64,000 nt of DNA, taken from positions 140,386-204,385 of the forward strand of contig JAGYIO010000003.1 of the NCBI GenBank assembly GCA_018402585.1. Direction: 5' to 3'. The DNA is from Chthoniobacterales bacterium (GTDB lineage: Bacteria > Verrucomicrobiota > Verrucomicrobiia > Chthoniobacterales > JACTMZ01). The notes below the pieces were generated by a model. The model was not told the origin of the DNA. It saw only the letters and a program-made list of their open reading frames with translations, and did not search any database. The translations under genes were made by a program, and so were the position numbers. Position 1 is the first letter of the stretch; each line of letters begins with the position of its first letter. Shown in pieces: positions 1 to 42,208 of the stretch.

Positions 1-2360
1 TCAACTGCCTGGCCAGCGCCACCTTCCCTCCCGGCTATCAGGATCTCCTCAATTACCTCGGCGGCTCCAATCCCAATCTGAGTGCCGGAGCGGCTCGCAA
101 CACCCTGACCCAACTGGCTGAAAGTGTCCGCCTGGCCAACACCGAACCCCGCACTGAAGTCCTGCGCGCCATCTTTACCCAACCGGGCAACCGCGACACC
201 GCCCCTTTTGGATCCGTGCCGACCATCCCGGGAACGATCTATGCCTCCGACTACGATCAGGGCATGAATGGCCACGCCTACGCGGATGCCGGGTGGGAAA
301 ACGTGCTTTACACCACGGGTGATTACACGGCTTGGAACGAGCGCTGGACCTACCGCAACGGCGGGGTGGACATCGAAACCTGCTCGGACCCTGACTCCAA
401 TGGCTACAACGTCTGTTTTTTCAAACCGAACGAGTGGATGAAATACACCGTCGAGGTCGCTTCCCCCGGGACCTACCGCATCGACCTGCGCGTGGCCAAT
501 GGCTCCGGGCAAACCGCCACCCTCGAGATCCAAAGCGGTGACGGAACCAAAACCTTGGCTACCGCCTCGGTGCGCCCTCGAGGTTGGTCGGACTGGGTGA
601 CGGTTTCCGTCAACGGCGGCTTTTCCACCGCCGGCCGCCAGTCGGTCCGCATCGCCAACACGGGCGCGTCCGACTGCAACATCAACTCCCTGCGCTTCAC
701 CAAGACCAGCGACACCGTGGCAGGGACCACTTCGGTCCCGGTGACCGTGACCACCGTTTCCCTCAAAGCGAACAACGGCGGATACCTCACGTGGAAAAGC
801 TCAAGTCCCCACGTTCTGACCTGCGAGGCCACCTCGGAGACGGACAACACGCGGTTCACCTTGGTCGACGCGGGGGACGGACGCACCGCGTTGCTCGCCG
901 GCAATGGCCAATACGTCCGCTACTCGGCCTCCGACAACAAGCTTTATGCCGATGCGACCAGCCTGGGGGCAGACGAGCAATTCACCCTGAACCGGCTCAA
1001 CCGGTCGGTCGCCATCCAGGCGCCCAACTCTCTCTTTGTCTCGCAAAATGCCAATGACCCTGTCCTCTGCGTCAAAAGTGTCCTCGCGGGCTGGGAATAT
1101 TTTCTCATGACCTCCCCTGTCACGACCCGAGGCGCTCCCGCACTCCCCTTGGGCGTCAGCATGAACAACGGGACGATCAGCTGGAGAACCATGCTCGGAG
1201 CCACCCACTACTCCGTGCAACGCCGCACCTCCTCAAGTGACTCGTTCCAAACCATTGCGACTGATCTTACCGGCACCTCCTTCATCGACCCCTCCCCCGC
1301 GAACGGAGCGACGAACACCTATCGCGTTTTGTCCCATGCCGGGACTTATGACAGTCCTCCTTCCGCCGAGGTCGGTTTCCTCGCCGCCGCCCTCCCCGCA
1401 GATTGGCGCGGGCAGGATGTCGGAAGCGTGGGCATTCCGGGCAGCGCCACCTTTCTCGATGGCACCTTCACCCTAAAAGGATCGGGTGCGGATATTTGGG
1501 AGACGGCCGATGGATGCCATTTTATCTCCCAGAGCTTGAGCGGCGATTTTGTCATCACCGCCCGTCTGGCCAGCATGGCCAACACGGACTACTGGGCCAA
1601 AGCCGGACTGATGGTCCGCGAGTCTCATGCCCCGGGCTCCCGGAATGTCTCCCTGCTCGTCACCCCGCAGGGTGGAGGCACCCGCCTGCAGTGGCGCACT
1701 TCCCCGGGCGGCCGCACCTCCGATCAGCAACTCAGCAGAAGCAACGCGCCTTTGTGGCTGCGCATCGTGCGCAGCGGCAACACCTTCACCGGCTGGCAGT
1801 CGGACGATGGACTGACTTGGACCAATACCCATGCGGTGACCCTCGGCCTGACCTCCGCGGTTTTGCTTGGACTGACCGTGACCTCGCACCAGAACAATGC
1901 GCTCAACCCGGCGGTGTTCGACCAGGTCAACGTGACCAGCCTGCCGCCCGGAACTTCCAGTTGGAGCTCCTTTCAAAACCTATGGTTCGCCGCCGGAGAG
2001 CCCAACAGCGCGCCCGAAGCCGATGCCAACAAGGATGACCTGCCCAATCTTCTGGCCTACAGCGCGGGGTTGAGTCCATGGATCCGGGCCACGCCCGACA
2101 ACGGCGGGTCCCCCTTCTTCGGGATCCACGATGGCTTCCTGGCCATGACCTACACCCGCTTGCGCCACCGTTTCGATTTCGACTGCGTGGTCGAGGTCTC
2201 CGGCGACCTCGTCACTTGGAATTCCGGTCCGGGCTTCACCGCGGAAAGCGGAATCGTGCCGCTCGATGACATCCGGGAACAAGTCACGGTGCGCGATGCC
2301 ATGCCGGCTGGCGGCTCCACTCAGCGCTTCATTCGCCTGCGGGGCATCTACCCGCGATGA
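1..2360 (+). CDS. Secreted carbohydrate-binding multidomain protein, 5'-partial (CBM6/35-like, beta-trefoil/fascin-like, FN3-like and DUF1349/LamG-like domains, plus a C-terminal tail module ending FIRLRGIYPR)
   Basis: The track ORF 216..2360 starts at a GTG. Hand translation of the same frame from nt 3 to 215 has no stop (NCLASATFPPGYQDLLNYLGG...), so the gene enters from upstream and the first full codon is at nt 3. Motifs seen: IYASDYDQG...EWMKYTVEV (CBM6-like) and FTLKGSGADIWETADGCHFISQSLSGDFVITARL...AKAGLMVRES (DUF1349/LamG-like). Confidence 0.8.
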   Translation, partial: NCLASATFPPGYQDLLNYLGGSNPNLSAGAARNTLTQLAESVRLANTEPRTEVLRAIFTQPGNRDTAPFGSVPTIPGTIYASDYDQGMNGHAYADAGWENVLYTTGDYTAWNERWTYRNGGVDIETCSDPDSNGYNVCFFKPNEWMKYTVEVASPGTYRIDLRVANGSGQTATLEIQSGDGTKTLATASVRPRGWSDWVTVSVNGGFSTAGRQSVRIANTGASDCNINSLRFTKTSDTVAGTTSVPVTVTTVSLKANNGGYLTWKSSSPHVLTCEATSETDNTRFTLVDAGDGRTALLAGNGQYVRYSASDNKLYADATSLGADEQFTLNRLNRSVAIQAPNSLFVSQNANDPVLCVKSVLAGWEYFLMTSPVTTRGAPALPLGVSMNNGTISWRTMLGATHYSVQRRTSSSDSFQTIATDLTGTSFIDPSPANGATNTYRVLSHAGTYDSPPSAEVGFLAAALPADWRGQDVGSVGIPGSATFLDGTFTLKGSGADIWETADGCHFISQSLSGDFVITARLASMANTDYWAKAGLMVRESHAPGSRNVSLLVTPQGGGTRLQWRTSPGGRTSDQQLSRSNAPLWLRIVRSGNTFTGWQSDDGLTWTNTHAVTLGLTSAVLLGLTVTSHQNNALNPAVFDQVNVTSLPPGTSSWSSFQNLWFAAGEPNSAPEADANKDDLPNLLAYSAGLSPWIRATPDNGGSPFFGIHDGFLAMTYTRLRHRFDFDCVVEVSGDLVTWNSGPGFTAESGIVPLDDIREQVTVRDAMPAGGSTQRFIRLRGIYPR

Positions 2361-2408: not shown

Positions 2409-3008
2409 TTACGGGCGGAGAACAGACAAGGCATATTGCAGACAAAGTTTGACCGTGGCTGGCTTGACGCCGAGGGCGCGCTGGGAGGCGGCGAGGCCGA
2501 TCTGGGCGTGCAAATATTGAGCCGCGAAATGAGGCTTGATGCGGCCCATCCATTCTTCCTTCCTCCGGCTGCTCCGAAAAAAACGCGTGAAAATCTCCAC
2601 CGTCGCGGCCTCGATCTCCGCCACTTTGGCCCGGGTCTTCGGGCCGAGGTCGAGCTGCGCGCCACGCATTTTCACGAAGAGGCAGCCGTGCTCGTAACGG
2701 GGATCTTCGCTCATGAAGACGATGAGCGCCTCCAACTTCGCGGCAAAGCTCAGCTTGCTCGAAAGCAGCCCCTTCACCTGGCTCTGGACCAAGCCGGCGT
2801 AGTGGTCGAGCGCGGCCAAAGTTAGTCCGTCCTCGCTGCCGAACTCGCGGTAAAGTGACGGCTTGGCCACCCCGGCCCGCTGGCAGATGGCATTGAGGGA
2901 CACCCCGGGGCCCTCGTGCCAATACGCCTCGGTCGCGACTTGGAGCACGGCCTCCGGACGCATCGTCCGGGGCCGGCCTCGGGGCAGTTTGGTTTGGGTC
3001 GCGGGCAT
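2409..3008 (-). CDS. TetR/AcrR family transcriptional regulator
   Basis: 199-aa ORF with an N-terminal HTH (VSLNAICQRAGVAKPSLYREFGSEDGL) typical of TetR. It is divergent from the SDR gene. Confidence 0.85.
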   Translation of the reverse strand: MPATQTKLPRGRPRTMRPEAVLQVATEAYWHEGPGVSLNAICQRAGVAKPSLYREFGSEDGLTLAALDHYAGLVQSQVKGLLSSKLSFAAKLEALIVFMSEDPRYEHGCLFVKMRGAQLDLGPKTRAKVAEIEAATVEIFTRFFRSSRRKEEWMGRIKPHFAAQYLHAQIGLAASQRALGVKPATVKLCLQYALSVLRP

Positions 3009-3121: not shown

Positions 3122-4000
3122 ATGGAAGACCAACCGAAAACAGTCGTCATCACCGGGGCCAGCAGCGGATTCGGCGAGGGCGCGGTCAAATGTTTCGCGG
3201 ACCAAGGCTATCGTGTCTGGGGCACGATGCGGGACACCGCAGGGCGCAACGCCGCGAAGAAAGCCGCGCTGGAAGCCCATTCTCCCGGTATTTCCATCCT
3301 CGAGATGGATGTGGCCCACGACGACTCCGTGGCCGCAGGTTTTGCCCGGATTCTGGCCGCCGGCCCCGTCGACATCCTGATCAACAACGCGGGCATCATG
3401 TATCTCGGCCTCACCGAAGCGTTCAGCGTGGCCCAGGCCCACGAGCAGATGAACACGAACTACTATGGCGTCATCCGCACCACGCAGGCCGTTCTTCCCG
3501 CCATGCGCAAAGCGGGCCGTGGGTTGATCATCAACTGCAGTTCTCTTGTCGGCCGCATCTCGCCGCCTTTTTTCGGGACCTACACCGCGACCAAGCACGC
3601 TTTGGAGGGCTACTCGCAAGCCTTGCGTTACGAGGTGGCCAAGTTCGGGATCGATGTCGCCATCGTCCAGCCGGGCCCTTTCGGTACCGGGCTTCTCGGA
3701 TCCGGCAAGCCTCCCGCCCACAGCGAGGTGCTTGCCTCCTACGGCGAACTCGCCGGCGTCCCGGCCGCCATGGGTGCCAACTTTGCCCAAATGCTGCAGA
3801 GCGAAGGTGCTCCGGACCCGCAATGGGTGGTCGATGCCTATTTGAAGCTGGCGGAAATGCCCGATGGCGAGCGCCCCGTGCGGACGGTTGTCGGGATCGC
3901 CTGGGGCGTCGACGAAATGAACCGCCTGACTCAGCCCATCCAGGACAAGATTCTCCACGAAATGCAACTGAACGGCGTTTTGGGCGGGGTCTCGACCTGA
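3122..4000 (+). CDS. Short-chain dehydrogenase/reductase (classical SDR) family oxidoreductase
   Basis: It has the TGASSGFG cofactor motif near the N-terminus, NNAG, and the YTATKHALEGY catalytic Y-x3-K. Confidence 0.85.
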   Translation: MEDQPKTVVITGASSGFGEGAVKCFADQGYRVWGTMRDTAGRNAAKKAALEAHSPGISILEMDVAHDDSVAAGFARILAAGPVDILINNAGIMYLGLTEAFSVAQAHEQMNTNYYGVIRTTQAVLPAMRKAGRGLIINCSSLVGRISPPFFGTYTATKHALEGYSQALRYEVAKFGIDVAIVQPGPFGTGLLGSGKPPAHSEVLASYGELAGVPAAMGANFAQMLQSEGAPDPQWVVDAYLKLAEMPDGERPVRTVVGIAWGVDEMNRLTQPIQDKILHEMQLNGVLGGVST

Positions 4001-4032
4001 GGACGGCCGAGGTCAAGCCCCACTACAGACCC

Positions 4033-4259
4033 CTTAGCCGTAACCATGCAAAACATTCTGCCACTTCTGGCACGGCCACAGAGGCGCGTCTGGGCGAGAG
4101 TTGACTAACTATTTGGTGAGCGAGTTGGCACGTGGCCAAGGGGGCACGGGCGTCCCGCCCGTCACGACCCGACAACACGGCCGGGACGGCCGTGCCCCCT
4201 GGACAGACCGAGCCAAGCCGCGCTTTTATTGCGTCTTCAACTGCATGGTTACGGCTTAG
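4033..4259 (+). mobile_element. 227-bp MITE-like non-coding element, copy 1
   Basis: Terminal inverted repeats are CCGTAACCATGCA (4038-4050) and TGCATGGTTACGG (4242-4254). CTTAG flanks the element on both sides. A ~23-bp GC hairpin lies inside. Copies of the same length sit at 26144-26370 and 42185-42411. Confidence 0.6.
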
Positions 4260-4344
4260 TCCCTGAACCCGCGCGTTGGCGGGTGTGTGCTGGGAGTATC
4301 CGGGTTTGCGAAGGCTATGAACTTTGGCAGGCCAGAGGTCAGAA

Positions 4345-4562
4345 GGCCACAGCCGAGTCTGAGAGACGGCCCATAGGCAAATGGAAGAGGATGACAGAAG
4401 ATGGTGTTCGCGCCGCTGACACGGCGCAAACACAGTCTCCGGACCGAAGCTTTGAGCGGGGCGCGTGTCAGCGCGCCCCGCTCTGTCCTCTGCTATCTTC
4501 TTCCATTTGACCGCTTCGCTCAGCTCTCCGAGCTGCCTGTCTCGTTGCCCTCGGCTGTGGCC
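4345..4562 (+). repeat. Long composite hairpin element X, related to 10009-10111
   Basis: The outer stem is GGCCACAGCCGAG (4345-4357) with CTCGGCTGTGGCC (4550-4562). The purine arm 4378-4400 pairs with the pyrimidine arm 4487-4509. The inner hairpins are 4404-4433 (loop CTGACA) and 4454-4483 (12-bp perfect stem, loop TGTCAG). Confidence 0.6.
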
Positions 4563-4666
4563 TGTTCTTCTTCGTTTTCAACAGAGTAACTCCCGCAAGT
4601 TAGTCGGGAGTCCCTGAACCCGCGCATTGGCGGGCGTGGTTGGGGAGTAACTGGGGCGGCAAAGCC

Positions 4667-4802
4667 CAGGGGGAACGGGCGTCTCGCCCGTTTTCCGAAA
4701 GACCACCCGGGCGGGACGCCCGCAACCCAAATCATTGGGGTGTGGCATCGGCATCCTGCCGATGGGTTTGGATCGTGACGGGCGGGACGCCCGTGCCCCC
4801 TG
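4667..4802. repeat. Inverted pair of the GGGG(C/A)ACGGGCGTC(C/T)CGCCCGT motif enclosing a CATCGGCATCCTGCCGATG hairpin
   Basis: 4667-4691 (cagggggaacgggcgtctcgcccgt) and 4778-4802 (acgggcgggacgcccgtgccccctg) are near reverse complements. The hairpin CATCGGC-atcct-GCCGATG lies at 4746-4764. The same two modules recur at 49126-49223. Confidence 0.6.
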
Positions 4803-5005
4803 TCCAAAGCAGTAATTGGCGGGTCCGCCATAACCCAAGTTACTCGGGAGCCAATGGCGCGTCGCTAACCACGGGTCTGGAGATCGGCAAAATGGGGGGT
4901 CTCAGCCTCGAAAGGGACCTGTGAGTTTAAGGTTGGGAAGTTGAAAACCGACGACTGTTCAGATCGGCCACTCCACCCTCACGACTTTCCACCACGATTT
5001 CCAAC

Positions 5006-5446
5006 TTAGCGCGCTGCGAAAGCCGCCGGCGCGTCTTGACCGGCACACGGGTCGTCGGCCAGCCACCGCCGGATTTCTTCGAGGGTTTTGTCCCCGCAAT
5101 TGCGTCCGCCTTTGAGCAACTCGAGCACACCGGCTTCGATTGCTGCGGCGCGTGACCGGATGCCGTGGCGGCCGAGGGCATTGACCGCCCGCGGCGAGAG
5201 ACCGGCCAATTCGACCGAACCGCGCAAGGTTTTCAAGACGCGGCGGTGGCGCGAGAGCATGAGCGAGATGGCCTGAGGCGTGACCTGGAATTGCTCGGAA
5301 ATCTCGCGGAAGGTGTAGCCAAGGCCGCGCAGGGTGGCGATATCGCGGACTCGTTGCGGCAGTTTCTCAAGGGTTGCCGCGGCCGGCGGATCGGTCGGGG
5401 TGCTGACCGAACAGTTGTATAGGGTCACGATGTCACTCATAGCCAA
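5006..5446 (-). CDS. Small DNA-binding protein with a sigma-70 region-4-like HTH and an RNA polymerase alpha-CTD-like helix-hairpin-helix
   Basis: LPQRVRDIATLRGLGYTFREISEQFQVTPQAISLMLSRHRRVL resembles sigma region 4. LAGLSPRAVNALGRHGIRSRAAAIEAGVLELLKGGRNCGDKTLEEIRRWL follows the alpha-CTD pattern (L-S-x-R-x-x-N-x-L...N-x-G-x-K-[ST]-L-x-E-I). The start overlaps the GH3 stop by 14 nt. Confidence 0.6.
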   Translation of the reverse strand: MAMSDIVTLYNCSVSTPTDPPAAATLEKLPQRVRDIATLRGLGYTFREISEQFQVTPQAISLMLSRHRRVLKTLRGSVELAGLSPRAVNALGRHGIRSRAAAIEAGVLELLKGGRNCGDKTLEEIRRWLADDPCAGQDAPAAFAAR

Positions 5447-7346
5447 GTCCGAATCCCAAGGGGTAGAGCGGATTTTCGATGGTCTCCCGTTGGTGTCCGA
5501 GGGGGACTTGATCCATCGAACGCGGCCAGGCGAAGGACAACTTTCCGGTGGCCGGCGCGGCTCCGGTCAGCACATCGACCACCCCGGCTCCTTCCGTCCC
5601 GGGAAGCCAGGCGGCCAGGATGGCATACGCCTGATCGGCCACGTCGCCCAGAATCATGGGGCGACCGGACAAGACAACGACCACCACCGGCAGGCCTGCG
5701 GCTTTGAGCGCCGCGACTGCTGCGGTATCCTCCGGAGAAAGGGCCAAGTCATAGCGGTCGCCTTTCATTTCGGCATACGGACCCTCACCCACCACCACGA
5801 TGCCCAAGTCGGCGCCTTCGCACTTCGATCCGTCGGCCGTAAAGTTGACCTCGGTCGTGTTGCCGGCCACTGCTTTGAGCGCGTCAAGAATAGTGGTTCC
5901 GCCCGGCGTGAGGTCGCCGCGATCACCTTGCCAACCGATGGTCCATCCCCCGCACTGCATACCGAGGTCGTCCGCACCGCTGCCCGCCACGTGGATCCGG
6001 CGTGGCAGCTTCTTGACCGGCAGGAGTGCATTGTCGTTCTTCAGCAAGACCACCGACTCGGCCACAGCCTGACGGGCCACTTTGCGGTGGGCCTCGGAGC
6101 CGAACTCCGGTTGCAATTCTTTGTTCGGCCAAAGATCCGGCTCCGCCTCCATCATGCCCATGGCAAATTTGACCCGCAGAATCCGGGTGACCGCATCATC
6201 AATCCGCGCCATGGGAACTTTCCCCTCCTCCACCAATTCCTGCAGCATGGTGATGAACTCCTTGTAGCGGTCGGTCAGCATCACCATGTCCATGCCGGCA
6301 TTGATCGAAATCTCGATGCACTTCTTGTAATCCGCGCTGCGCACCTGCCCCGCCGCATTGTTGCTCTCCGGCGCGGAGTCGTCGGCCTCCGGACTGACCA
6401 ACTGGTCGATGGCATTGTAATCGGAAATGACAAAACCCTCGAAACCCAGTTCCTTCTTCAGGATGTCGGTCAAGAGCTCCTTGCTGCCGGAGCATTTGAC
6501 CCCGTTCCAACTGCTGTAAGACGGCATGATGGTGGCCACGCCGGCCTTGATCGCGTCGGGATAGGCGCCCAAATGAATGGCCCTCAAGGTCTCTTCGTCG
6601 ACCCGCACATCGCCTTGGTCGAGCATGCCCTCTCCCCCACCCGGTTTGAATCCCGTTCCTCCATCACCGATGAAATGCTTGGCGCAGGCCGCGACCGACT
6701 CCCGCCCCGAGAGGTCCGTCCCTTGCAAGCCGCGCACCACCGCGGGGCCGAGCCGGGCCACCACGGCAGGATCCTCCGAGAATCCCTCGTAAGCCCGTCC
6801 CCAGCGGATGTCCCGCGGCACAGCGACCGACGGGGCGAAGGTCCATTGGATCCCCGAAGCCCGCACTTCCCGCGCGGTGATCCGCGCGATTTCCTCGACC
6901 AACTGCGGATTCCGGGCGCACCCCAGGCCGATGTTGTGCGGAAAGATGACCGCCCCGAGGAGATTGTTGTGGCCGTGGACTGCATCCACGCCGTAGATCA
7001 AGGGAATCCCGAGCCGCGATTTGAGCGCACGCTTCTGGCGCTCGGTGTAAAAATCCGCCCAGTCCGAAAGCTTGTTGCCGCTCTCCGGATCCGAACTGCC
7101 CCCGCTGAGCATCGACCCCAGGGCAAGGGTGGTGATGTCCTCGAGGTCCTTGACCGATCCGCTGTCCGGTTGGGTCATCTGCCCGACCTTCTCGGCCAGG
7201 GTCATTTTTTCCACGATGGCTTTGATCTTATCGTCGTTCGCCGTGAGCCATGGCGGGGAGGCGGCCAGCGCACTCTGACAGAGAACAGCGAACGCAGCGC
7301 TCAAGGTGGCCGGGCGGGCAAAGGGGGCAAGTGGCGGTAAAGTCAT
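5433..7346 (-). CDS. bglX: Glycoside hydrolase family 3 beta-glucosidase, secreted
   Basis: GH3 motifs are present: KVGQMTQP, GIPLIYGVDAVHGHNN, and GFEGFVISDYNAIDQ with the nucleophile Asp in context. An N-terminal signal peptide is present. Confidence 0.9.
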   Translation of the reverse strand: MTLPPLAPFARPATLSAAFAVLCQSALAASPPWLTANDDKIKAIVEKMTLAEKVGQMTQPDSGSVKDLEDITTLALGSMLSGGSSDPESGNKLSDWADFYTERQKRALKSRLGIPLIYGVDAVHGHNNLLGAVIFPHNIGLGCARNPQLVEEIARITAREVRASGIQWTFAPSVAVPRDIRWGRAYEGFSEDPAVVARLGPAVVRGLQGTDLSGRESVAACAKHFIGDGGTGFKPGGGEGMLDQGDVRVDEETLRAIHLGAYPDAIKAGVATIMPSYSSWNGVKCSGSKELLTDILKKELGFEGFVISDYNAIDQLVSPEADDSAPESNNAAGQVRSADYKKCIEISINAGMDMVMLTDRYKEFITMLQELVEEGKVPMARIDDAVTRILRVKFAMGMMEAEPDLWPNKELQPEFGSEAHRKVARQAVAESVVLLKNDNALLPVKKLPRRIHVAGSGADDLGMQCGGWTIGWQGDRGDLTPGGTTILDALKAVAGNTTEVNFTADGSKCEGADLGIVVVGEGPYAEMKGDRYDLALSPEDTAAVAALKAAGLPVVVVVLSGRPMILGDVADQAYAILAAWLPGTEGAGVVDVLTGAAPATGKLSFAWPRSMDQVPLGHQRETIENPLYPLGFGLGYE

Positions 7347-7439: not shown

Positions 7440-7460
7440 TAGTCACTTCGGACTATAGCG
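7440..7460. promoter_or_regulatory. Conserved 21-nt box TAGTCACTTCGGACTATAGCG (TAGTC-N6-GACTA palindrome), copy 1
   Basis: 19 of 21 nt match 10132-10152. The box lies in the divergent region between GH3 (-) and the beta-helix gene (+), 98 nt before the 7558 ATG. Confidence 0.45.
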
Positions 7461-7557: not shown

Positions 7558-9849
7558 ATGAAGCTCAAAACCAAAACCCCCAAGTTACGTCGCGCCCGCC
7601 TCGGAACTTCCCTCGTCACCGCGGCCCTCGCAGCGATCAGCCTTTCGGCCGCCAGTGCCCAAGACAATTCCTGGACCGGCGGCACGAGCACGGATTGGAA
7701 CACCCCGGGAAATTGGAGTCTCGGAAATGTACCAAGCGGGCAGAACGCCATTGTGGACAACGCGTCGGGAAACATCGCAACCATCTCCGCGGATATTGCC
7801 GCCACGCCCAATGATATCGTCGTGCGCGGGGGAGGCCGCCTCGATCATCTTGCCGGAACCGCCGGCACAGGCGGAGGCAGTTGGATGTTTGTCGGCCAGA
7901 ACGGCACGGCGGGCACCTACAATTTGGCGGACACCGCCACGGCCGCTGCCGGCCTGACCGGTTTTGCCCAGGGAACCGGTTCACTCAACGCCACGGGGAA
8001 TCTAAACGTAGGTGCTGCTGGTGACAATCGGACCGGAACCGTGCGGGTCAACACGGCGGGAACGCTTGCCGTCTCCGGCGAATTCTTCATCGGTGACTCG
8101 CTCAACAGCACGGGCACTTTCAGCCTCGAAAACGGCAGCATGACGGTGAACAACAAGATCTATGTCGGCAACAACCGGGGCACCGGGACGCTGACCATGT
8201 CCGGCGGCACGCTGACCAAGACCGGCGGCGACCAAACTTTTGTCGGCCGCGACAGCGGCACCGGGACCCTCACCCAGAGTGGCGGGACCATCACGCTGAA
8301 CCATGATTTCTACGTGGGACAAGGCGGCGGTGGCAACGGCACTCTCAATCTTAGCGGCAACTCGGTGCTCAACACCGGGCGTGATTTTGTCATCGGCCGC
8401 GAGAGTGGCACGGGCACGCTCAACATGACCGGCGGCACGATCACCAAGACCGGGGATGAGAAGATGATCGTCGGCCACAACAATGGCACAGGCACCGTGG
8501 TGCAGAGCGGCGGAACGATCAACGTGAATCAAAACCAGTTGTATATCGGCAACGAAAATGCCGGGGCTCAGGGAACCTATACCCTCAGCGGGACCGGAGC
8601 GCTCAACGTGGCGGACGAATTGGTCGTCGGCCGCGAGAGCGGCACAGGTATCTTGAACGTCAACGGCGGCACGATCACCACCTCGGGCAACGGCAACATG
8701 TATATCGGGCGCCGTAACGGCACAGGCACCCTCAACCAGACGGACGGGGTAATCAGCGTGATTTACGAATTCGGCGTGGGTACGCGCGATGACAACAAGA
8801 TTGGCACCGGCACCTACAATCTGAGTGGAGGCACCTTGTCGGCGGGTCGTAACATCTTCATCGGCAAAGAACTCGGATCGTCCGGAACGATGGTCATGAC
8901 CGGCGGGGCGATGAGCACGAGCGACAAGTTGCAGATCGGGCACAACCAAGCGACGGGCGTTCTCACCCAGAGCGGCGGCACGGTGAACGTGCAAAACGAA
9001 GTCTTCATCGGCAATGAAAACAATGCCTCATCGGTGGGAACCTACACCCTGAGCGGGACCGGCGTCCTCAACGTGGGCAACGAGGTCATTGTCGGCCGCG
9101 ACAACGGCACGGGAACCTTCAACCTCGACGGAGGCACGGTCAACGCCACCAAGATTTCCGGCGGCAACGGCAGCGCGACGGTGAACTTCAACGGCGGCGT
9201 GCTCAAAGCCAAACGGGACGAGGCCAACCTGATCGAAAACCTGGACACCGCCAACGTCGAAAACGGCGGGATCAAGATCGACAGCAACGGGTTTGCTGTT
9301 GCCACCAGCCAGGCTCTGACCGGCACGGGCGGCTTGGAGAAGCTGGGCGCGGGCAGCCTGACCCTCAACGCAGCCAGCACTTACACCGGGCCGACGCTGG
9401 TCAGTGCCGGCACCTTGACCTTGGCCCTCAACAGCAGCATCACCAGCGCGGTCACTGTGGCCGACGGCGCCGCCCTCGGCGGAGCGGGCGCCATTGCCGG
9501 CGACCTCTCCTTCAACTCCGGCGCCAAGTTTGCCTTTAGTCTCACCCAGACACTTCTCGCCAACGGCGCCACGGTGAGCTTTGCCGACTTCGGCATTGAC
9601 GATCTTGTCGGATTGTCCAGTGCGACCACGGTCGGTCTTTACAACCTCATCGGCGGCACCGCTATCATCAACACGAACGGACTGAGTAATCTGGGTGCCG
9701 CCAACGCCGCCGATCTCGGCGATGGAAAGTCCGCCTACTTCACCGAAGGTAGTTTGCAAGTCAACGTCGTTCCGGAACCCAGCACCTACGCTTTACTCGT
9801 CCTCGCCGGTCTGGGGCTGGCCGGCCACGTCATCCGCCGGCGGCGCTAA
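7558..9849 (+). CDS. Autotransporter-associated beta-strand-repeat surface protein with a C-terminal PEP-CTERM anchor
   Basis: It has a signal peptide and the NSWTGGTSTDWNTPGNWS motif. It carries about 20 repeats of the G-T-G-T-L-x-x-S-G-G-T-I type and GGLEKLGAGSLTLNAASTYTGPTLVSAGTLTL. The C-terminus is VPEPSTYALLVLAGLGLAGHVIRRRR. Confidence 0.9.
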   Translation: MKLKTKTPKLRRARLGTSLVTAALAAISLSAASAQDNSWTGGTSTDWNTPGNWSLGNVPSGQNAIVDNASGNIATISADIAATPNDIVVRGGGRLDHLAGTAGTGGGSWMFVGQNGTAGTYNLADTATAAAGLTGFAQGTGSLNATGNLNVGAAGDNRTGTVRVNTAGTLAVSGEFFIGDSLNSTGTFSLENGSMTVNNKIYVGNNRGTGTLTMSGGTLTKTGGDQTFVGRDSGTGTLTQSGGTITLNHDFYVGQGGGGNGTLNLSGNSVLNTGRDFVIGRESGTGTLNMTGGTITKTGDEKMIVGHNNGTGTVVQSGGTINVNQNQLYIGNENAGAQGTYTLSGTGALNVADELVVGRESGTGILNVNGGTITTSGNGNMYIGRRNGTGTLNQTDGVISVIYEFGVGTRDDNKIGTGTYNLSGGTLSAGRNIFIGKELGSSGTMVMTGGAMSTSDKLQIGHNQATGVLTQSGGTVNVQNEVFIGNENNASSVGTYTLSGTGVLNVGNEVIVGRDNGTGTFNLDGGTVNATKISGGNGSATVNFNGGVLKAKRDEANLIENLDTANVENGGIKIDSNGFAVATSQALTGTGGLEKLGAGSLTLNAASTYTGPTLVSAGTLTLALNSSITSAVTVADGAALGGAGAIAGDLSFNSGAKFAFSLTQTLLANGATVSFADFGIDDLVGLSSATTVGLYNLIGGTAIINTNGLSNLGAANAADLGDGKSAYFTEGSLQVNVVPEPSTYALLVLAGLGLAGHVIRRRR

Positions 9850-10131: not shown

Positions 10132-10152
10132 TAGTCATTCCGGACTATAGCG
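10132..10152. promoter_or_regulatory. Conserved 21-nt box TAGTCATTCCGGACTATAGCG, copy 2
   Basis: 19 of 21 nt match 7440-7460. The box lies 81 nt upstream of the GH30 ATG. A possible -35 TTGAAA lies at 10120-10125, 17 nt before GACTAT. Confidence 0.45.
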
Positions 10153-10232: not shown

Positions 10233-11684
10233 ATGTCTCTCCCCACGAGTCCCCGCCGCCTCCTCACCACCCTCCTGCTCGGTGGCTTGTCTCTGACCAT
10301 ACATTCCGCCGATGCCGCCGAGCCGCCCGTTCGTGCCTGGTCGGTGGTCGAAACCGCCAAGGATACCGGACACCGGCTCAGCGCCGTGACGGCTCCGTCC
10401 AAAACCGCAGCCCCTGCCCCCAGCGCCATTGTCTGCCATCCGTCGAAGTCATTTCAGGAAATCGTCGGCTTCGGCGGTGCCCTCAGCGAGTCCTCCGCTT
10501 GGGTTTTGGCCCAGCTTCCACCGGACAAGCGGATGGAAATACTTCGCCGCTACTACGACCCCAAGGAGGGCATCGGCTACACTCTGGCCCGCACGCACCT
10601 CAACTCCTGCGACTTTTCCCTCAGCATGTGGTCGCTTACCCCCACCCCGGGCGACTACGACCTGCATGATTTCACCCTCGAGCCGATGCGCCGCTGGATG
10701 ATGCCGCTCATCCACGATGCCCGCAAGGTGGCCGGGCCCGACCGCTTCAAATTGATGGCCTCACCCTGGAGCCCGCCGGCCTGGATGAAGAACAACAACC
10801 GCATGGACGATGGTGGTTCGCTCCGCTGGGAATACCGTCCGGCCTGGGCGGGTGTTTTTGTCAAATTCGTTCAGGCCATGGCCAAGGAGGAGGGCATTCC
10901 GATCTGGGCCCTTTCCGTGCAAAACGAACCCGGCGCCCATCAGCGGTGGGAATCCTGCACCTACACGCCGGAGCACGAGGCGGAGTTCATCCGCGACTTC
11001 CTCGGGCCCGCCTTGCACGCCGCGGGGCTGGAGGATGTGAAGCTGCTCGGCCATGACCACAACCGGGACTCGATCGAGAAATTCGCCGAGGCCGAACTCG
11101 GAGACCCCGCCACCGCCAAGTATCTTTGGGGCCTCGGGCTGCACTGGTATATGAGCGAGGACTACGCCGCCTCGTCGCGGGTGCACGAGAAATTCCCGGA
11201 CAAACACATTCTCTTCACCGAAGGGTGCGTCGAAGGCGCTCCCGAGTGCATCGGCAAATGGGAGAACGGCGAACGCTACGCGCGCAATATCATCGGCGAC
11301 TTCAGCAACTGGGTCTGCGGCTTCATTGACTGGAATATCGTCCTCGACCAACGCGGCGGTCCGAACCACGTCGGCAATTTCTGTGACGCCCCGGTCATCG
11401 TCGACACCAACACCAAGGAAGTCACCTACGGCCCCTCCTTCTACTACCTCGCCCACTTCAGCAAATTCGTCCAACCCGGCGCCCGCCGCATCCACTCGGA
11501 AGGCGGCCCGCAAGGAATCCAGTCCATTGCGTTCCGCAACCCGGACGGAACCCTCGCCGTCGTCGTCTTCAACCCGACCGAACAGCCCGCCGAGTTCGCC
11601 CTCGGGGTGGCCGAAGAAGCGAACCTGACCTGCCAGATTCCGGCCCGCGGCATCCAGACCTATTTCGAGTCCCCGCAGTCCTAA
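10233..11684 (+). CDS. Glycoside hydrolase family 30 (glucosylceramidase / beta-1,6-glucanase-like), secreted
   Basis: GH30 motifs are present: IVGFGGALSESSA, ASPWSPPAWMKNNN, LSVQNEPG and LFTEGC. A signal peptide is present. Confidence 0.88.
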   Translation: MSLPTSPRRLLTTLLLGGLSLTIHSADAAEPPVRAWSVVETAKDTGHRLSAVTAPSKTAAPAPSAIVCHPSKSFQEIVGFGGALSESSAWVLAQLPPDKRMEILRRYYDPKEGIGYTLARTHLNSCDFSLSMWSLTPTPGDYDLHDFTLEPMRRWMMPLIHDARKVAGPDRFKLMASPWSPPAWMKNNNRMDDGGSLRWEYRPAWAGVFVKFVQAMAKEEGIPIWALSVQNEPGAHQRWESCTYTPEHEAEFIRDFLGPALHAAGLEDVKLLGHDHNRDSIEKFAEAELGDPATAKYLWGLGLHWYMSEDYAASSRVHEKFPDKHILFTEGCVEGAPECIGKWENGERYARNIIGDFSNWVCGFIDWNIVLDQRGGPNHVGNFCDAPVIVDTNTKEVTYGPSFYYLAHFSKFVQPGARRIHSEGGPQGIQSIAFRNPDGTLAVVVFNPTEQPAEFALGVAEEANLTCQIPARGIQTYFESPQS

Positions 11685-11726: not shown

Positions 11727-14700
11727 ATGAAATCCACCCCCACCCCCCCTATCACCGGAAACTTCCTTCGGGCTACACCCGTTGTCGCCGCCCTTCTCCT
11801 CGGCTTGAGCGCCCCGCTCGGTCACGCCGTCGACAACTTTTGGAGCGGAGCCGTGAGCTCGGATTGGAATGACGGGGCCAACTGGTCGGAAGGCGGGGTG
11901 CCCGATACTCTATTTGACGACAACGCCGTTGTGGCCACAACCACCCCCAACATCGCAACGATCACCGCGGATATTTCCGCGACCCCCAATGACATCATCG
12001 TGAATGGGGGCGGTCGCATCGACCATCTGGCCGGCGTGGCCGGAACCTTCGGGGGTGCCTGGATGAAGGTGGAAGACGGCGTCTACAACCTGGCCGACAC
12101 GTCGATCCCAGAAGTTGGTATCACCGGCTACGCACAAGGCACGGGTTCGCTCGACGCCACGGGAAATCTCCTTGTGGCCGCCTTCGGCGACAATCGGGAG
12201 GGCACGATCAACGTCAACACCGACGGGACCCTCACCGTTTCCAGCGAGCTGTTTGTCGGCGACTCCACGGGCAGTCAAGGCGCCCTCAACCTCGAAGCGG
12301 GCACCATGACGTTGAACAACACGAGCTACATCGGCAACAACCGGGGCACCGGCACGGTAACCATGACCGGCGGCACGATAATCAAAACGGGTGGGGGGCA
12401 GCTTCTCGTCGGGCAAAACAATGGTATTGGCCGCGTGTTGCACAGCGGCGGCACCATAAGCGCGAACAACGAAGCGTACATCGGCAATGCCAATGCCGGT
12501 TCGGGAAGCTACACGCTGAACGGGACCGGATCGCTTAGCATTTCCAACGAGCTCGTCGTGGGGCGCGAACTCGGCACGGGCGTTCTGAACGTCGACGGCG
12601 GTACGATTACGACCGAGGGCAATGGCAACATGTATGTCGGCCGCCGCAACGGCGTGGGAACACTCAACCAAACGGCCGGCACGCTCAACGTGAACCGCGA
12701 GTTCGGCGTGGGAACACGCGACGGCGACCAGGGCGGCATCGGTGCCTACAATCTGAGCGGAGGCGCGCTGGCGGCGACCAACAACATCTTTGTCGGCAAG
12801 GACGAATCCTCCTCGGTCAACGCCACCTCCTTGGTTCGTGGCGTGGCCTACGTCATCACGACGCCGGGCGATACAATTTGGACCGCATTCGGCGCAGCCG
12901 ATAACAACGTGGGAACGGTCTTCACCGCCTCGGCCAGCGGAACCGCGGACAGCGGCACCGGTGTCGCGGTCAAGGTCACCGATGTGTCCGGCAAGTCGTC
13001 CGGCACCATGACGATGACCGGCGGAACCGTGACGGGCAGCGACAAGCTGATCATCGGGGAGAATGGCGCGACAGGCTTCCTTGCGCAAAGCGCCGGCACC
13101 ATGAATGTGCAGAACGAAATCTATGTTGGCAACGGTCTTCCGCCCGCCCAAGGAACAAGGATTCTTTCCAATGCTAATGACGGACAACTCGAGAAGCGTT
13201 CCGAGTGGTCACCTGAAACCGTCATCATTCAAAATATCGACAACTGGAATGTGAGCATCGGCGAATGGTATGGATCCGGCCTGACGACCGCCGTCATCCC
13301 TTTCCAGTTGCCCGACTTCGGCGCGGTGGCTGATCCGTTCACCAGCGCCACCTTCGGGGTGAATCTTTACAACAAAGGAGATGCCACGGTCACCGACCTC
13401 GACCTCTACGCAGTGAGGGTCAGCCCTGCCCCCCAGATTGCCACAACCGACTGGTACAACGGTTCCGCCCCCGACCCGAACGCCACGCTGATCCAAGCGA
13501 GCTTCCTCACCCCCGCCAGCACGACGACGAGCGCAGGTCCCGAGAGTGGGCCCAACAACCTGACGGATGACGCGGGAAGCGCGGCACTCCTCGCCTACCT
13601 CAATGCCGCCTACGACAGCGGGAACGGGGCCGGACAGTTCGTTTTTCTCCGGGTGAGCTACGCCTCGGACACCTTCCCCTCAGGTTGGGATGCTTACAAT
13701 TTTACAACCCGCAACGCCGCTCTCGAGGGCGATGCTCCGGTGATCAGCTTTACTTCTTCCGTCGCAGCGATCCCGCCCGACGCCACCTACACGGTCAGCG
13801 GTTCGGCGGTGGTCAACGTGGGCAACGAAATCATCGTGGGCCGCGAAAACGGCACCGGCACCCTCAATCTTGACGGCGGCACGGTCAACGCGACCAAGAT
13901 CTCGGGTGGCACCGGCAACGCCACGCTGAACTTCAACGGTGGCGTCCTCACCGCGAAACGGGACGAGAGCAACCTGATCGAAAACTTGGATGTGGCCAAT
14001 CTGGCGGGTGGCGGACTCAAAATCGACAGCAACGGGTTCAACGTGACCACCAGCCAGTTCTTCACGGGTACAGGCGGCTTGGAGAAATCGGGTGCAGGCC
14101 AGCTCACCTTGCGCGCACCCAGCACCTACGCAGGCACTACAACGGTGACGGCCGGCGTTCTCCGGGTCGAAAAAACCGGACTTAATGCCATTGTCGACGC
14201 CACCGCCGACACTTTGGTCGCCGAGTTCGCGGCCCCGACGGCTCCCGGGGCTTACCGCATCTTGCCCGGGCCTCTGGCCGGGTCCCAGACCTTCACCGCC
14301 ACCGGTTTGGGCTCGCTCCAGCAGGCGACTTTCGACGCACAGACCAGCACCGTGACGGTCACGGGAGAGCCGGACGGCGACCCTTACGTGGCCTGGATCG
14401 AGAGCTTCACTCCGAATCCCCTGCTCCCGGATGACGCCTCCAAATTACCCACCGCCGACCCGGATGGCGACGGCATCGCCAATCTGATGGAATACGTGCT
14501 GGCCGGCGGCAACCCGGTCGTGCCGTCTCTCTCCATTCTCCCGACCGTGGCCAGCGTGGGTGACGATCTGGTGCTGAGCTACACCCGCAATGACGAATCG
14601 GAAGCGGACACCACCCAAGTGGGCCAGTGGACCACAGACCTGACCGTCTGGAATGACGTCGTGCCTGTGGTGGTCAACGAAAACGGGGCTTTGGCGGATG

Positions 14701-14777
14701 ATATGACAGTCACCGTGCCCAAGAGCAATGCGGTCAACGGAAAACTGTTTCTCCGCTTGAAGGTGACCATGCCGTAA
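11727..14777 (+). CDS. Autotransporter-associated beta-strand-repeat surface protein, paralog of 7558..9849, with insert domains and a non-PEP-CTERM C-terminal module
   Basis: The N-terminal ~430 aa and the [30 protein letters not shown] region are collinear with the 7558 protein. Extra segments lie at ~12796-13000 and ~13159-13785. The C-terminus is [21 protein letters not shown]...[12 protein letters not shown]. Confidence 0.9.
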
Positions 14778-23676: not shown

Positions 23677-26148
23677 ATGTCCGCCCCCAAGCTCACTCCC
23701 ATGATGCGCCAATACCAGGACATCCGCCGCGAGCTTCCCCCCAACACCCTCCTCTTCTTCCGCCTCGGGGACTTTTACGAAATGTTTTTCGACGACGCCC
23801 GCGAAGCGTCTGCCCTCCTCAATGTCGCCCTGACCAAACGCGGCGACACCCCCATGTGCGGCGTCCCCTACCACAGCGCCCGCGCCTACGTGGCCAAACT
23901 GGTCGAAGCCGGCAAACGCGTCGCGATCTGCGACCAAGTCGGCGAAGTCACTCCCGGCCAACTCGTCCGTCGCCAAATCGCCCGCATCCTCAGTGCCGGC
24001 ACGCTCGACGACTTCGGCCTCGAGGAAAACCGCCACAACTACCTCGCCGCGGTCTGCCCGGAGAAAAAATCCTCCGGCCTCGCCTGGCTCGATCTCAGCA
24101 CCGGCGAATTCCGCCTCGCCGAAATCGAATCGCCCGCCCAACTCGCCGACCAACTCGCCCGCCTCCAACCAAGCGAACTCCTCATCCCCGACCACCTCGA
24201 GACCACCCCCGACCTCCCGCTGCCCCCCACCCCGCACGACGCCTTCGCCTTCGACCTGACCCAGGCCACCGACCTCCTCTGCGACCACTTCCGCGTGCAA
24301 TCCCTCGACGGCCTGGGCTGCACCGATCTCCCGCACGGCACCCGTGCCGCCGGCGCCCTCCTCCATTACATCACCCGCAGCCTCCGCCGCGACGCACAAC
24401 ACCTCGCGCCCCCGAAACCCTGGCACGCCACATCCTACCTCCTCCTCGACGCCGTCACCCAAACCAACCTCGAACTCGTCGAATCCCGCAGCCCCGAAGG
24501 CACCAGCCTTCGCGGCGCCATCGACCGCACCCTCACTCCGATGGGCGCCCGCCTGCTCCGCGAATGGATCCTCCACCCGCTCCGCGATCTCGCCGCCATC
24601 ACCCACCGCCAAGACCTCGTCGCCGCTTTCCATGATGACCCCACCCGCCTCGCCGCGATACGCGACATCCTCCGCGACATCCGCGACATGGAACGCGCCG
24701 TCTCCCGCCTCAGCCTCGCCTCCGGCAACGCCCGCGATCTCGTCGCGCTGAAAACCTCCCTTGCCCTCCTCCCGTCCCTCCGCGCCACCCTCGCCGAAAA
24801 CGACACCTCCCCGCTCCTCGCCCTCGCCGCCGACCTCCGCACCTTCGACCCGCTCGTCGTCCTCCTCGAATCCGCCGTGGTCGACGAACCCCCGCCGACC
24901 CTCCGCGACGGCGGCATGATCCGCGAGGGCTACAACCCCGACCTCGACGAACTCCGCCGCGCCGGCACCGAAGGACGCCGCTGGATCGCCGAACTGCAAG
25001 ACCGCGAAATCGCCCGCACCGGCATCAAGTCGCTCAAAATCCGCTACAACTCCGTCTTCGGCTACTACCTCGAAGTGACCAAATCCAATCTCGCCTCCGT
25101 CCCCCACGACTACACCCGCAAACAAACCACCGCCAACTCGGAGCGCTTCATCACCCAGGAGCTGAAAGAAATGGAAGGCCGCATCCTCGGCGGCGAAGAA
25201 CGCGCCCGCGCCCTCGAGTCGGAAATCTTCGGCCAACTCCGCACCGCCGTCCTCGCCGAATTGGCCTCGCTCCAACACACCGCCCGCGCCGTGGCCCAGA
25301 TCGACACCCTTGCCGGACTCGCCGAAACCGCCCGCACCTTCCGCTACATCCGCCCGAAACTCACCGCCACCGGCGCGATCAAAATCACCGACGGACGCCA
25401 CCCCGTCCTCGACCAAACCATGCCCGCCGGGCGCTTCGTGCCCAACGACACCGCGCTCGACACCGACGCCCCCCGCCTCGTCATCCTCACCGGCCCCAAC
25501 ATGGCCGGCAAAAGCACCTACATCCGCCAGGTCGCCCTCCTCGTCCTCCTCGCCCAGACCGGCAGTTTCATTCCCGCGGCCGAAGCCGAGATCGGACTGG
25601 TCGACCGCATCTTCACCCGCGTCGGCGCGAGCGACGACCTGGCGCGCGGACAATCCACCTTCATGGTCGAGATGAACGAAACCGCCGCCATCCTCAACAA
25701 CGCCACCGACCGCAGCCTCGTCATCCTCGACGAAATCGGCCGCGGCACCTCCACCTTCGACGGCCTCTCCATCGCCTGGAGCGTGGCCGAGCACCTCCAC
25801 GACGTCACCGCCTGCCGCACCCTTTTCGCCACGCATTACCACGAACTCACCGACCTGGCCCGCACCCGCCGCGGCGTGACCAACTGCAACATCGCGGTCC
25901 GCGAATGGAACGACGACATCATCTTCCTCCGCAAAATCATCCCCGGCCCCGCCGACCAAAGCTACGGCATCCAAGTTGCCCGCCTCGCCGGCCTGCCCGA
26001 ACCGATCCTCAAACGCGCCCGCGAAATCCTGACCAACCTGGAAAACTCCGAACTCACCGCCGAAGGCAAACCGGCGCTAGCCGAAAAACGCCCCCGCGCC
26101 CACAAACTCCGCGCCTTCACCGACCAACTCGACCTCTTCGAGTCCTAG
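23677..26148 (+). CDS. mutS: DNA mismatch repair protein MutS
   Basis: Motifs present: TPMMRQYQDIRRELPPNTLLFFRLGDFYEMFFDDA, GPNMAGKSTY Walker A, and DEIGRGTSTFDG. The stop TAG (26146-26148) lies inside the terminal CCTAG of the MITE-like element. Confidence 0.97.
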   Translation: MSAPKLTPMMRQYQDIRRELPPNTLLFFRLGDFYEMFFDDAREASALLNVALTKRGDTPMCGVPYHSARAYVAKLVEAGKRVAICDQVGEVTPGQLVRRQIARILSAGTLDDFGLEENRHNYLAAVCPEKKSSGLAWLDLSTGEFRLAEIESPAQLADQLARLQPSELLIPDHLETTPDLPLPPTPHDAFAFDLTQATDLLCDHFRVQSLDGLGCTDLPHGTRAAGALLHYITRSLRRDAQHLAPPKPWHATSYLLLDAVTQTNLELVESRSPEGTSLRGAIDRTLTPMGARLLREWILHPLRDLAAITHRQDLVAAFHDDPTRLAAIRDILRDIRDMERAVSRLSLASGNARDLVALKTSLALLPSLRATLAENDTSPLLALAADLRTFDPLVVLLESAVVDEPPPTLRDGGMIREGYNPDLDELRRAGTEGRRWIAELQDREIARTGIKSLKIRYNSVFGYYLEVTKSNLASVPHDYTRKQTTANSERFITQELKEMEGRILGGEERARALESEIFGQLRTAVLAELASLQHTARAVAQIDTLAGLAETARTFRYIRPKLTATGAIKITDGRHPVLDQTMPAGRFVPNDTALDTDAPRLVILTGPNMAGKSTYIRQVALLVLLAQTGSFIPAAEAEIGLVDRIFTRVGASDDLARGQSTFMVEMNETAAILNNATDRSLVILDEIGRGTSTFDGLSIAWSVAEHLHDVTACRTLFATHYHELTDLARTRRGVTNCNIAVREWNDDIIFLRKIIPGPADQSYGIQVARLAGLPEPILKRAREILTNLENSELTAEGKPALAEKRPRAHKLRAFTDQLDLFES

Positions 26149-26370
26149 CCGTAACAATGCAAAACAATCTGCCTTTTCCGGCGCTGCCACAGAGGCGCGC
26201 CTGGGCGAGAGTTGACTAACTGTTTGGCGAGCGAGTTGGTACGTAGCCAAGGGGCACGGGCGTCCCGCCCGTCACGATCAGACAGCACGGCCGGGGACGG
26301 CCGTGCCCCCTGGAAAAACCGAGCCAAGCCGCGCTTTTATTGCGTCTCCGACTGCATGGATACGGCTTAG
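26144..26370 (+). mobile_element. 227-bp MITE-like element, copy 2 (the most diverged copy)
   Basis: The TIRs are CCGTAACAATGCA (26149-26161) and TGCATGGATACGG (26353-26365). The flanks are CCTAG and CTTAG. The core GGGGCACGGGCGTCCCGCCCGTCACG...CCGTGCCCCC is conserved. Confidence 0.6.
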
Positions 26371-41774: not shown

Positions 41775-42208
41775 CCCGCCCCAACATCGAAAAAATCCCC
41801 GCCTCTCCGCTGCCCCGGCGGACCAGATTCATGGTCCGTGCCGAGCGTGTCGACGGACTCGACCCGCACCCACCGCACCATTTCCACCCAGGTCGCCTCG
41901 CCGCGCAACGGCGGCGCACACTCGGCCGTTGCCCGGATGCGCACCGCGTCATTTCGGTTGAAGACCACATAACGCGGGCAGATTTCCGCCGAGACATCGG
42001 CCCCACCTTCGCTCAAACCGGCAATTTCACTCCACTCTTCGGCACGGTTCACAGGCACCACCTGCAGACGACACCGGGTCTCGCCCGCCAACCCGCAGCG
42101 CCGCATGATTTCAGGAGCGGAAAAGGAACCCGCAAACGGCGCGGAGGGCCCGGAGAAATTTTTCTGAAGCACCAACTTTATGGTCTTAGCCGTAACCAGG
42201 CAAAACAT
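41771..42208 (-). CDS. Hypothetical protein with an uncertain start
   Basis: It is a 145-aa ORF. The first 8 codons lie inside the MITE-like element (42185-42411). Alternative starts are GTG 42172, TTG 42175 and ATG 42106. No family was recognised. Confidence 0.4.
   Translation of the reverse strand: MFCLVTAKTIKLVLQKNFSGPSAPFAGSFSAPEIMRRCGLAGETRCRLQVVPVNRAEEWSEIAGLSEGGADVSAEICPRYVVFNRNDAVRIRATAECAPPLRGEATWVEMVRWVRVESVDTLGTDHESGPPGQRRGGDFFDVGAG

Follow-up and report, generated by a model that had tools for sequence, protein, structure and literature searches.

A small protein of Chthoniobacterales sugar operons that joins a sigma region 4-type helix-turn-helix to an RNA polymerase alpha-CTD-like domain

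Why would a glycan locus of a Chthoniobacterales bacterium carry, overlapping a β-glucosidase-type gene, a short protein that resembles two RNA polymerase modules in a single chain? The question is raised by a small gene, here called X, in a stretch of 64,000 nucleotides (assembly GCA_018402585.1, contig JAGYIO010000003.1, positions 140,386 to 204,385 of the forward strand), which is referred to as the window. A first-pass annotation made from the sequence alone had described X as a combination of a sigma-70 region 4 helix-turn-helix (HTH) with a domain similar to the C-terminal domain (CTD) of the RNA polymerase alpha subunit. The features that define the gene and its junction are, in window coordinates:

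5006–5446, minus strand: coding sequence of X, the sigma4-HTH/alpha-CTD-like protein (open reading frame (ORF) list, homologue lengths, Pfam matches)
5243–5377, minus strand: sigma region 4-type HTH of X, residues 24-68 (Sigma70_r4_2, hhalign, model helices, Foldseek)
5057–5236, minus strand: alpha-CTD-like double helix-hairpin-helix domain, (HhH)2, of X, residues 71-130 (RNA_pol_A_CTD, family profile, model, Foldseek)
5433–7346, minus strand: glycoside hydrolase family 3 (GH3) gene of the β-glucosidase type, upstream operon partner of X (Pfam Glyco_hydro_3 and Glyco_hydro_3_C)
5433–5440, minus strand: overlap of 8 nt between the X start and the GH3 stop, ATGAGTGA (sequence)

Sequence and profile comparisons confirmed that X consists of a sigma region 4-type HTH followed by an alpha-CTD-type HhH domain; on this composition, put forward in the first-pass annotation, Pfam, hhalign, the family profile and the structure models agree. 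Both Pfam domains scored past their curated cut-offs, Sigma70_r4_2 on residues 24-68 with 26.6 bits (E=4.6e-6; cut-off 25.7) and RNA_pol_A_CTD on residues 71-130 with 26.9 bits (E=3.9e-6; cut-off 23.8). A profile of 38 family members matched solved alpha-CTD chains of the PDB with E=1.2e-5; the single sequence of X gave weak matches to them (E≥0.026). With hhalign, E-values of 6.7e-5 and 1.4e-4 were obtained against the E. coli alpha-CTD and sigma70 region 4.2, respectively, the latter alignment pairing Y44-M63 of X with Y571-I590. The motif correspondence quoted earlier was reproduced as LSPRAVNAL... / ...RNCGDKTLEEI in X against LSVRS.NCL... / ...N.G.KSL.EI. The Pfam GerE model (PF00196) was absent from the matches of X even at E≤10. 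A scan of X with NCBIfam yielded sub-threshold partial matches to extracytoplasmic function (ECF) sigma and rpoA models, nothing past a cut-off and no family-specific model.

Structure prediction with AlphaFold2 resulted in a moderate model of full-length X with disordered ends (predicted local distance difference test, pLDDT, 69.6; predicted template modelling score, pTM, 0.41). The HTH comprises three to four helices in this model (31-41, 46-53, 57-66 and 68-73), and the C-terminal domain has four (85-93, 99-105, 107-111 and 119-130). Foldseek searches with the full-length model returned local matches of weak E-value to NarL/LuxR-type and sigma-4 HTHs and to the alpha-CTD of H. pylori. In local alignments, the DNA-binding domains of NarL, VraR, LiaR and DosR superposed on the HTH with a root-mean-square deviation (rmsd) of 1.5-2.6 Å over 45-50 residues. 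When modelled alone, the C-terminal half was predicted confidently (pLDDT 82.7, pTM 0.70), and most of its 15 Foldseek matches, the top five included, were RNA polymerase alpha subunits. The best four of these 15 had query-normalised TM values of 0.61-0.66 and an rmsd of 2.3-2.6 Å over 53-56 residues, showing a resemblance of this half to alpha-CTDs and not to an unrelated fold.

X is a member of a larger protein family. A word-indexed search at E≤1e-3 retrieved 335 clusters (90% identity) of proteins that are typically 130-145 residues long and often contain both Pfam domains. Their source names are generic or wrong, among them 'hypothetical', 'alpha subunit C-terminal domain-containing', 'sigma-70 family sigma factor', 'NarL/FixJ' and 'YlxM'. 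An exhaustive phmmer search of 1.84 billion 50%-identity representatives gave 120 clusters at E≤1e-3 and 82 at E≤1e-10, and X as query retrieved no RpoA at E≤1e-3 among these 1.8 billion representatives. Judged by these searches, the family is narrow. It was represented by 39 loci in one-genome-per-species contigs, nearly all from metagenome-assembled genomes (MAGs) labelled Chthoniobacterales, Chthoniobacter or Verrucomicrobia; the exceptions were one Luteolibacter and one Pirellulales MAG. Several MAGs contained paralogues on separate contigs, at least five in bin-436, at least four in bin-1029 and at least three in each of two others. In the 64-kb window, tblastn detected no further copy.

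The alignment of 38 family members, which are 52-90% identical to X, has 35 invariant columns. X carries the core motifs LRGLGY, VTPQA(V/I)SLMLSRH, LSxRAVNALGRHGI and RNCGxKT..E...W. In a neighbour-joining tree of the core, the clades followed the genomic context, with the exception of the X copy of locus L013, which groups with rhamnose-type copies yet is located in a GH3/GH5 locus.

The residues that the alpha-CTD uses on DNA were retained. In the alpha subunit R265, N268, G296, K298 and S299 constitute the '265 determinant', which binds UP-element DNA, and N294 lies in the same hairpin. According to the hhalign alignment, with verified numbering, R86, N89, N116, G118, K120 and T121 of X are the equivalents of E. 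coli alpha R265, N268, N294, G296, K298 and S299, and all six are invariant in the 38 diverse family members. The acidic alpha 261 determinant (D259/E261), which contacts sigma region 4, was not retained; its positions are occupied by L80 and G82 in the hhalign alignment. Sigma70 reads the −35 element with R584, E585, R588 and Q589, to which hhalign assigned P57, Q58, S61 and L62 of X, the first three invariant in the family and L62 nearly so.

The recognition helix of X, VTPQAISLMLSRHRR, is invariant across the paralogues, and the segments VTPQA(V/I)SLMLSRHRR (recognition helix), LSxRAVNALGRHGI (hairpin 1) and RNCGxKT (hairpin 2) are essentially identical in all clades. As the DNA-reading elements hardly differ, distinct operators are not expected for the paralogues of different operons. 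Variable positions were located in HTH helix 2 (residues 50-54), the linker (70-82), residues 100-112 and both tails. The stretch 100-112 includes the hhalign counterpart of alpha 285-290, a part of the activator-contacting '287 determinant'. The core (residues 25-131) is basic, with an isoelectric point of 11.0 and net charges of +5 for the HTH and +3 for the HhH domain, and about 10 residues separate the end of the recognition helix from the first alpha-CTD-like residue. Two further features of the core were observed. C117 in the second hairpin (RNCG) is a nearly invariant cysteine at the position of Leu295 in the alpha-CTD, and the invariant H67 and nearly invariant H94 adjoin the DNA-binding elements.

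The reading frame of X encodes 146 residues if begun at TTG 5446, and 144 residues if begun at an in-frame ATG two codons inside, at 5440. The close homologues are all 144 residues long and in the alignment begin where this ATG stands; therefore, the 144-residue protein is the likelier product and ATG 5440 the likely start. The GH3 gene ends with a TGA at 5435-5433, which places the overlap at 8 nt; translation from the TTG would extend it to 14 nt. Gene calls in the orthologous loci L001, L002, L003, L004 and L005 showed an 8-nt overlap likewise. By its sequence the overlap is a translational-coupling junction, and its conservation in the orthologues speaks for the co-expression of X with the glycan locus that the first-pass annotation had deduced from the overlap. 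The assignment to a glycan locus also held, with genes for GH30, a GH5 cellulase with a CBM6 module and PATR-repeat proteins around X.

A neighbourhood census was conducted with genes called in 43 of the first 46 loci and on contigs L047 and L048; flanking proteins were clustered and their representatives annotated by Pfam or from precomputed annotations. The largest context group was rhamnose catabolism, in two types. X is either placed between a bifunctional aldolase/dehydrogenase (RhaEW; Aldolase_II + adh_short, 742 residues) and RhaA, or it is the first gene ahead of RhaA and a bacterial microcompartment (BMC) cluster, divergent from DeoR. The window locus belongs to a second group, in which X follows GH3 and the pair is convergent with GH5-CBM6. 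Other copies were found in the arrangements GH16-CBM6/X/GH99-like, N-methyl protein/X/GH17, PATR/X/GH42, GH65-HAD/X/PATR and CstA/X/PATR, or divergent from LacI or AraC with a 2-hydroxyacid dehydrogenase gene next. Neighbours on the same strand usually overlap with X or are separated from it by only a few nucleotides. A classical regulator (GerE-type response regulator, DeoR, LacI or AraC) is present in several loci. The survey of distribution and neighbours, which had been recommended at first pass, thus portrays a lineage-restricted, multi-copy family in carbohydrate operons. In one locus (L006, GCA_041447075.1) the X paralogue heads a rhamnose/fucose-type microcompartment cluster with genes for RhaA, PTAC, BMC shell protein, EutN, aldehyde dehydrogenase, acetate kinase and class II aldolase, divergent from genes for DeoR, an FGGY kinase and LUD-domain (LutB/C-type) proteins.

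Parts of X are familiar from several known systems. Like the alpha-CTD (PF03118), its C-terminal domain is a compact (HhH)2 fold of four helices and two hairpins with the same DNA-binding residues. In contrast to the alpha-CTD, it has no alpha N-terminal domain attached to it, the acidic 261 determinant is missing, the counterpart of the '287 determinant' varies between paralogues and hairpin 2 contains a cysteine (NCG). X showed no RNA_pol_L or RNA_pol_A_bac match and scored 12-22 bits with rpoA equivalog models that have cut-offs of 228-523. A truncated rpoA was rejected, given the absent N-terminal domain and the conserved length of about 140 residues. With region 4 of sigma-70 and ECF factors (PF08281/PF04545), X has in common the pattern LPxRxRxI..LR...GY(S/T)xxEI....V(T/S)...(I/V)S..L.R.R. 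Unlike sigma factors, it has no region 2 or 3, and the alpha-CTD-like domain directly replaces the sigma C-terminal tail. Sigma70_r2 had no match on X at E≤10, TIGR02937 scored 23.4 bits (cut-off 42.9), and residues 1-24 form a disordered, variable segment. The classification as sigma factor, the source name of homologue P0116, was rejected on the absence of region 2. The HTHs of the LuxR/GerE/NarL type match X in the local fold, but X has no GerE model match, no receiver or ligand domain and another C-terminal partner.

The closest structural parallel to the combination as such is a complex of RNA polymerase parts. In the enzyme, alpha-CTD and sigma-4 sit side by side on UP-proximal/−35 DNA (PDB 3N97). 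Both modules of this ternary complex with DNA are present in one X chain, and both 3N97 protein chains were among the structural matches of X. In 3N97, however, they are separate subunits that touch via alpha D259/E261 and sigma R603, residues that X has not kept. Full-text searches of a literature library yielded no paper on a sigma4-HTH + alpha-CTD-like architecture. The statement in the first-pass annotation that X falls into no described regulator class is in line with these empty searches, with the generic source names and with the absence of NCBIfam models past cut-off. Its description of X as a free-standing fusion held as far as the missing description is concerned; the fusion is not a one-off, with several hundred proteins in the family and remote proteins of the same architecture in phages. 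X is best described as a presumed regulator of the HTH type whose second domain is unusual, as is its deployment as multi-copy, operon-embedded genes; no curated family covers it.

What X does in these operons can be approached from the combined evidence. With moderate confidence, we propose that it is a small, basic protein without a sensor that regulates transcription by binding DNA. The analysis establishes its domain composition, the conserved DNA-binding residues, the embedding in operons and a multi-copy family restricted to one lineage; that X binds DNA and regulates, and in which direction and on which target, is inferred. The HTH would bind in the major groove, and the HhH domain would contact minor groove and backbone, as the alpha-CTD does on UP elements. 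A composite site that has one part in the major groove and another in the adjacent minor groove is plausible because the linker measures only about 10 residues and the two modules are neighbours on UP-proximal/−35 DNA in RNA polymerase. Co-translation with GH3 would let the amount of X track the induction of the β-glucan operon, and the role of X would be that of a feedback or coupling factor encoded in the operon, not that of the primary sugar sensor. Because the DNA-contacting residues are essentially identical across the sugar operons, the paralogues are predicted to share a type of site or a partner. Either several operons would feed one regulatory activity, or X would be linked through its variable surfaces to the respective classical regulator of the locus. 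In the latter case residues 50-54, 70-82 and 100-112 and the tails may tune contacts with a GerE-type response regulator, DeoR, LacI or AraC.

Several observations weigh against this proposal. A census of 7-9-mers in the intergenic DNA of 16 paralogue contexts revealed no X binding site beyond the shuffled null, and no common motif across paralogue contexts was visible by eye. The residues with which sigma70 reads the −35 element were not retained in X, which weakens the case for base-specific reading. The full-length model was only moderate and leaves the relative orientation of the domains undefined. The Foldseek E-values were poor, an effect of the tiny domains (about 55 residues for the C-terminal one). 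Finally, co-translation with an abundant enzyme would lead to a high copy number, which is unusual for a site-specific transcription factor.

In lakes and soils, Verrucomicrobiota rank among the major glycan degraders, and almost nothing is known of their regulatory biology. If X regulates transcription, it would represent a lineage-specific control of polysaccharide-use loci in this phylum. The regulatory logic would be unusual, with each of several nearly identical DNA-binding paralogues tied to a catabolic operon of its own. The fusion of two neighbouring polymerase modules also offers a natural test of DNA reading by alpha-CTD and sigma-4 when both are off the enzyme. A practical consequence concerns genome quality estimates. 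PF03118 serves as a single-copy phylogenomic marker (PMC3663571), and with the X family past its cut-off, two to five extra matches per Chthoniobacterales genome could bias estimates of completeness and contamination.

A bolder version of the regulator proposal is tentative and, in our judgement, doubtful. It takes the paralogues as single-chain, free-standing copies of the sigma-4/alpha-CTD promoter-recognition unit of the polymerase, one per sugar operon. These would occupy −35/UP DNA or dock on RNA polymerase or activators, and couple the carbohydrate being eaten to cell-wide promoter usage. If this were true, X would stand for a regulator class built from polymerase parts, without described precedent.

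The window is syntenic with locus L004, and its GH3 is 94% identical to that of L004. The neighbouring genes are:

3–2360, plus strand: GH5 cellulase/CBM6 gene, cut by the window start (85% identical to the L004 counterpart)
2409–3008, minus strand: TetR gene (Pfam, synteny with L004)
3122–4000: short-chain dehydrogenase gene
7558–9849, divergent from GH3: PATR-repeat protein gene with a PEP-CTERM-like tail end
10233–11684, plus strand: GH30 gene
11727–14777: second PATR protein gene

The listed ORF 216–2360 corresponds to the C-terminal approximately 785 residues of the GH5 cellulase/CBM6 protein, which has 1120 residues.

When the GH3 upstream regions of seven orthologous loci were aligned, the sole invariant block was CTATAGTCCG..A..GACTAG (about 20 nt), which contains the perfect palindrome TAGTC-N6-GACTA. 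Two copies were located in the window, where 0.22 matches are expected by chance:

7440–7455, no strand: palindrome in the divergent GH3/PATR promoter region (invariant block)
10132–10147, no strand: palindrome copy 2, about 90 nt upstream of GH30

In the orthologous loci the palindrome is found upstream of GH3, GH30 and GH5-CBM6, the last copy being shared with a divergent pair of HisKA_3 kinase and GerE response regulator. It was detected solely in GH3/GH5-context loci, in 10 of 46 (L001, L002, L004, L005 and L008-L013), with no match in L003, and it adjoins or overlies the likely core promoter. TAGTC-N6-GACTA is thus very likely the operator of a β-glucan regulon.

An obvious candidate for its reader is X itself, acting as a locus-specific β-glucan regulator that binds the palindrome as a dimer upstream of GH3/PATR, GH30 and GH5/HK and autoregulates its own operon. 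The position next to or over the likely core promoter would suit such a role, as would a palindrome that is the only invariant block upstream of GH3, occurs far above chance and is confined to ten GH3/GH5-context X loci (not L003) and to no other paralogue locus. P0121, a metagenomic protein of 269 residues, is a tandem duplication of the whole sigma4-HTH/alpha-CTD-like unit; this hints that two X units act together and would fit paired binding. We nevertheless consider this role unlikely. The recognition helix is the same in paralogues whose loci have no palindrome, the X copy of L013 groups with rhamnose-type copies in a locus with palindromes, and X has no recognised dimerisation element. 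The HisKA_3 kinase and GerE response regulator beside GH5, with the palindrome in their own divergent promoter, are a more conventional reader. On account of the shared recognition helix and the L013 case, the palindrome is probably read by another regulator, namely the response regulator of the adjacent two-component system, and not by X.

The rhamnose loci of the DeoR type (L006, L007, L014, L025, L027, L028 and L032) have a different conserved upstream block, promoter-like and composed of CAAGC, an A-tract, CAC, TTGCNC, a 17-nt spacer with AAACRCAGA and TA(C/A)A(A/C)A. It reads as a putative sigma-A-type −35/−10 promoter with a UP-like A-tract just upstream of the −35 element, and the conserved spacer element AAACRCAGA may be the DeoR operator. 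In the window, neither the A-tract/TTGC element nor AAACRCAGA gave matches above chance, and a scan for sigma-70-type promoters around the X locus gave zero matches.

It is likewise improbable that X acts mainly by touching other proteins, imitating the sigma-4/alpha-CTD surface of RNA polymerase as a free mimic or decoy. In that role it would titrate activators that touch alpha-CTD or sigma-4, or dock on the β-flap in place of sigma region 4, and transcription would be reprogrammed or damped while the sugar operons are on. High conservation extends over the entire core of the paralogues, beyond the DNA-facing residues, which fits a universal partner such as RNA polymerase, and stoichiometric co-translation with the enzymes suits titration. 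Variable residues in the '287 determinant' counterpart, where activators touch the alpha-CTD, and the classical regulators beside X in several loci point in the same direction. The strict conservation of the alpha-CTD DNA-binding determinant, however, argues for selection on DNA contact, and the 261 determinant, by which sigma-4 is touched, is absent, with L80 and G82 in place of D259 and E261.

Remote relatives raise the question of a phage connection. Proteins with the X layout at 27-41% identity are P0194-P0202, P0208 and P0228, the last of which passes both Pfam cut-offs. Three relatives with the domain order of X are encoded on phage-like contigs: P0216 (L049, 7001-7705), directly upstream of the genes for a large-terminase ATPase (GpA_ATPase) and a portal protein; P0223 (L051, 3862-4446), near a Terminase_6N gene and a possible portal gene; and P0228 (L050, 398-736), which heads a PDDEXK/RecT module. 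They are about 27-39% identical to X (E 1e-5 to 1e-3), and in contrast to X they stand beside terminase/portal or RecT modules, not in sugar operons. Built from an HTH and either one or two alpha-CTD-like repeats, the relatives on phage-like contigs may function in DNA binding, as small-terminase-like or as phage regulatory proteins.

The shared layout of P0216, P0223 and P0228 would allow X to be a DNA-binding protein of phage type that has been domesticated, of the kind seen in small terminases, recombination modules or Xis, with a role outside transcription. We regard this as very unlikely. The likeness to the phage proteins is marginal (E 1e-5 to 1e-4), the close family had no match in IMG/VR or among annotated phage genomes (INPHARED), and all contexts examined are chromosomal catabolic operons without phage genes, with no terminase or portal gene in the window or in the family loci examined. 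By these comparisons the HTH + alpha-CTD-like architecture is older and wider than the Chthoniobacterales family, and the family itself is chromosomal.

The probability that X is a spurious ORF or that its domain likeness is fortuitous is negligible, even with Pfam scores merely 1-3 bits past the cut-offs and a genome of 63% G+C rich in long spurious ORFs on either strand, in view of the 335 homologous clusters, the 35 invariant columns in 38 members of 52-90% identity to X, the synteny and start/stop overlap kept in orthologous loci and the agreement of independent profile and structure searches on the domains; a spurious ORF is ruled out by this conservation, and X is clearly a real gene.

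Scans of the window for Rfam families and tRNAs returned nothing. No convincing gene lies in the 1-kb gap that follows X downstream (4001-5005), where L004 has an RrnaAD methyltransferase gene. The gap carries a dispersed repeat of about 227 nt, with copies of 90-96% identity at 26146-26370 and 42185-42411. Short palindromic units of about 30-60 nt in the gap, which also occur at 49122-49155, resemble intergenic elements of the miniature inverted-repeat transposable element (MITE) or repetitive extragenic palindromic (REP) type.

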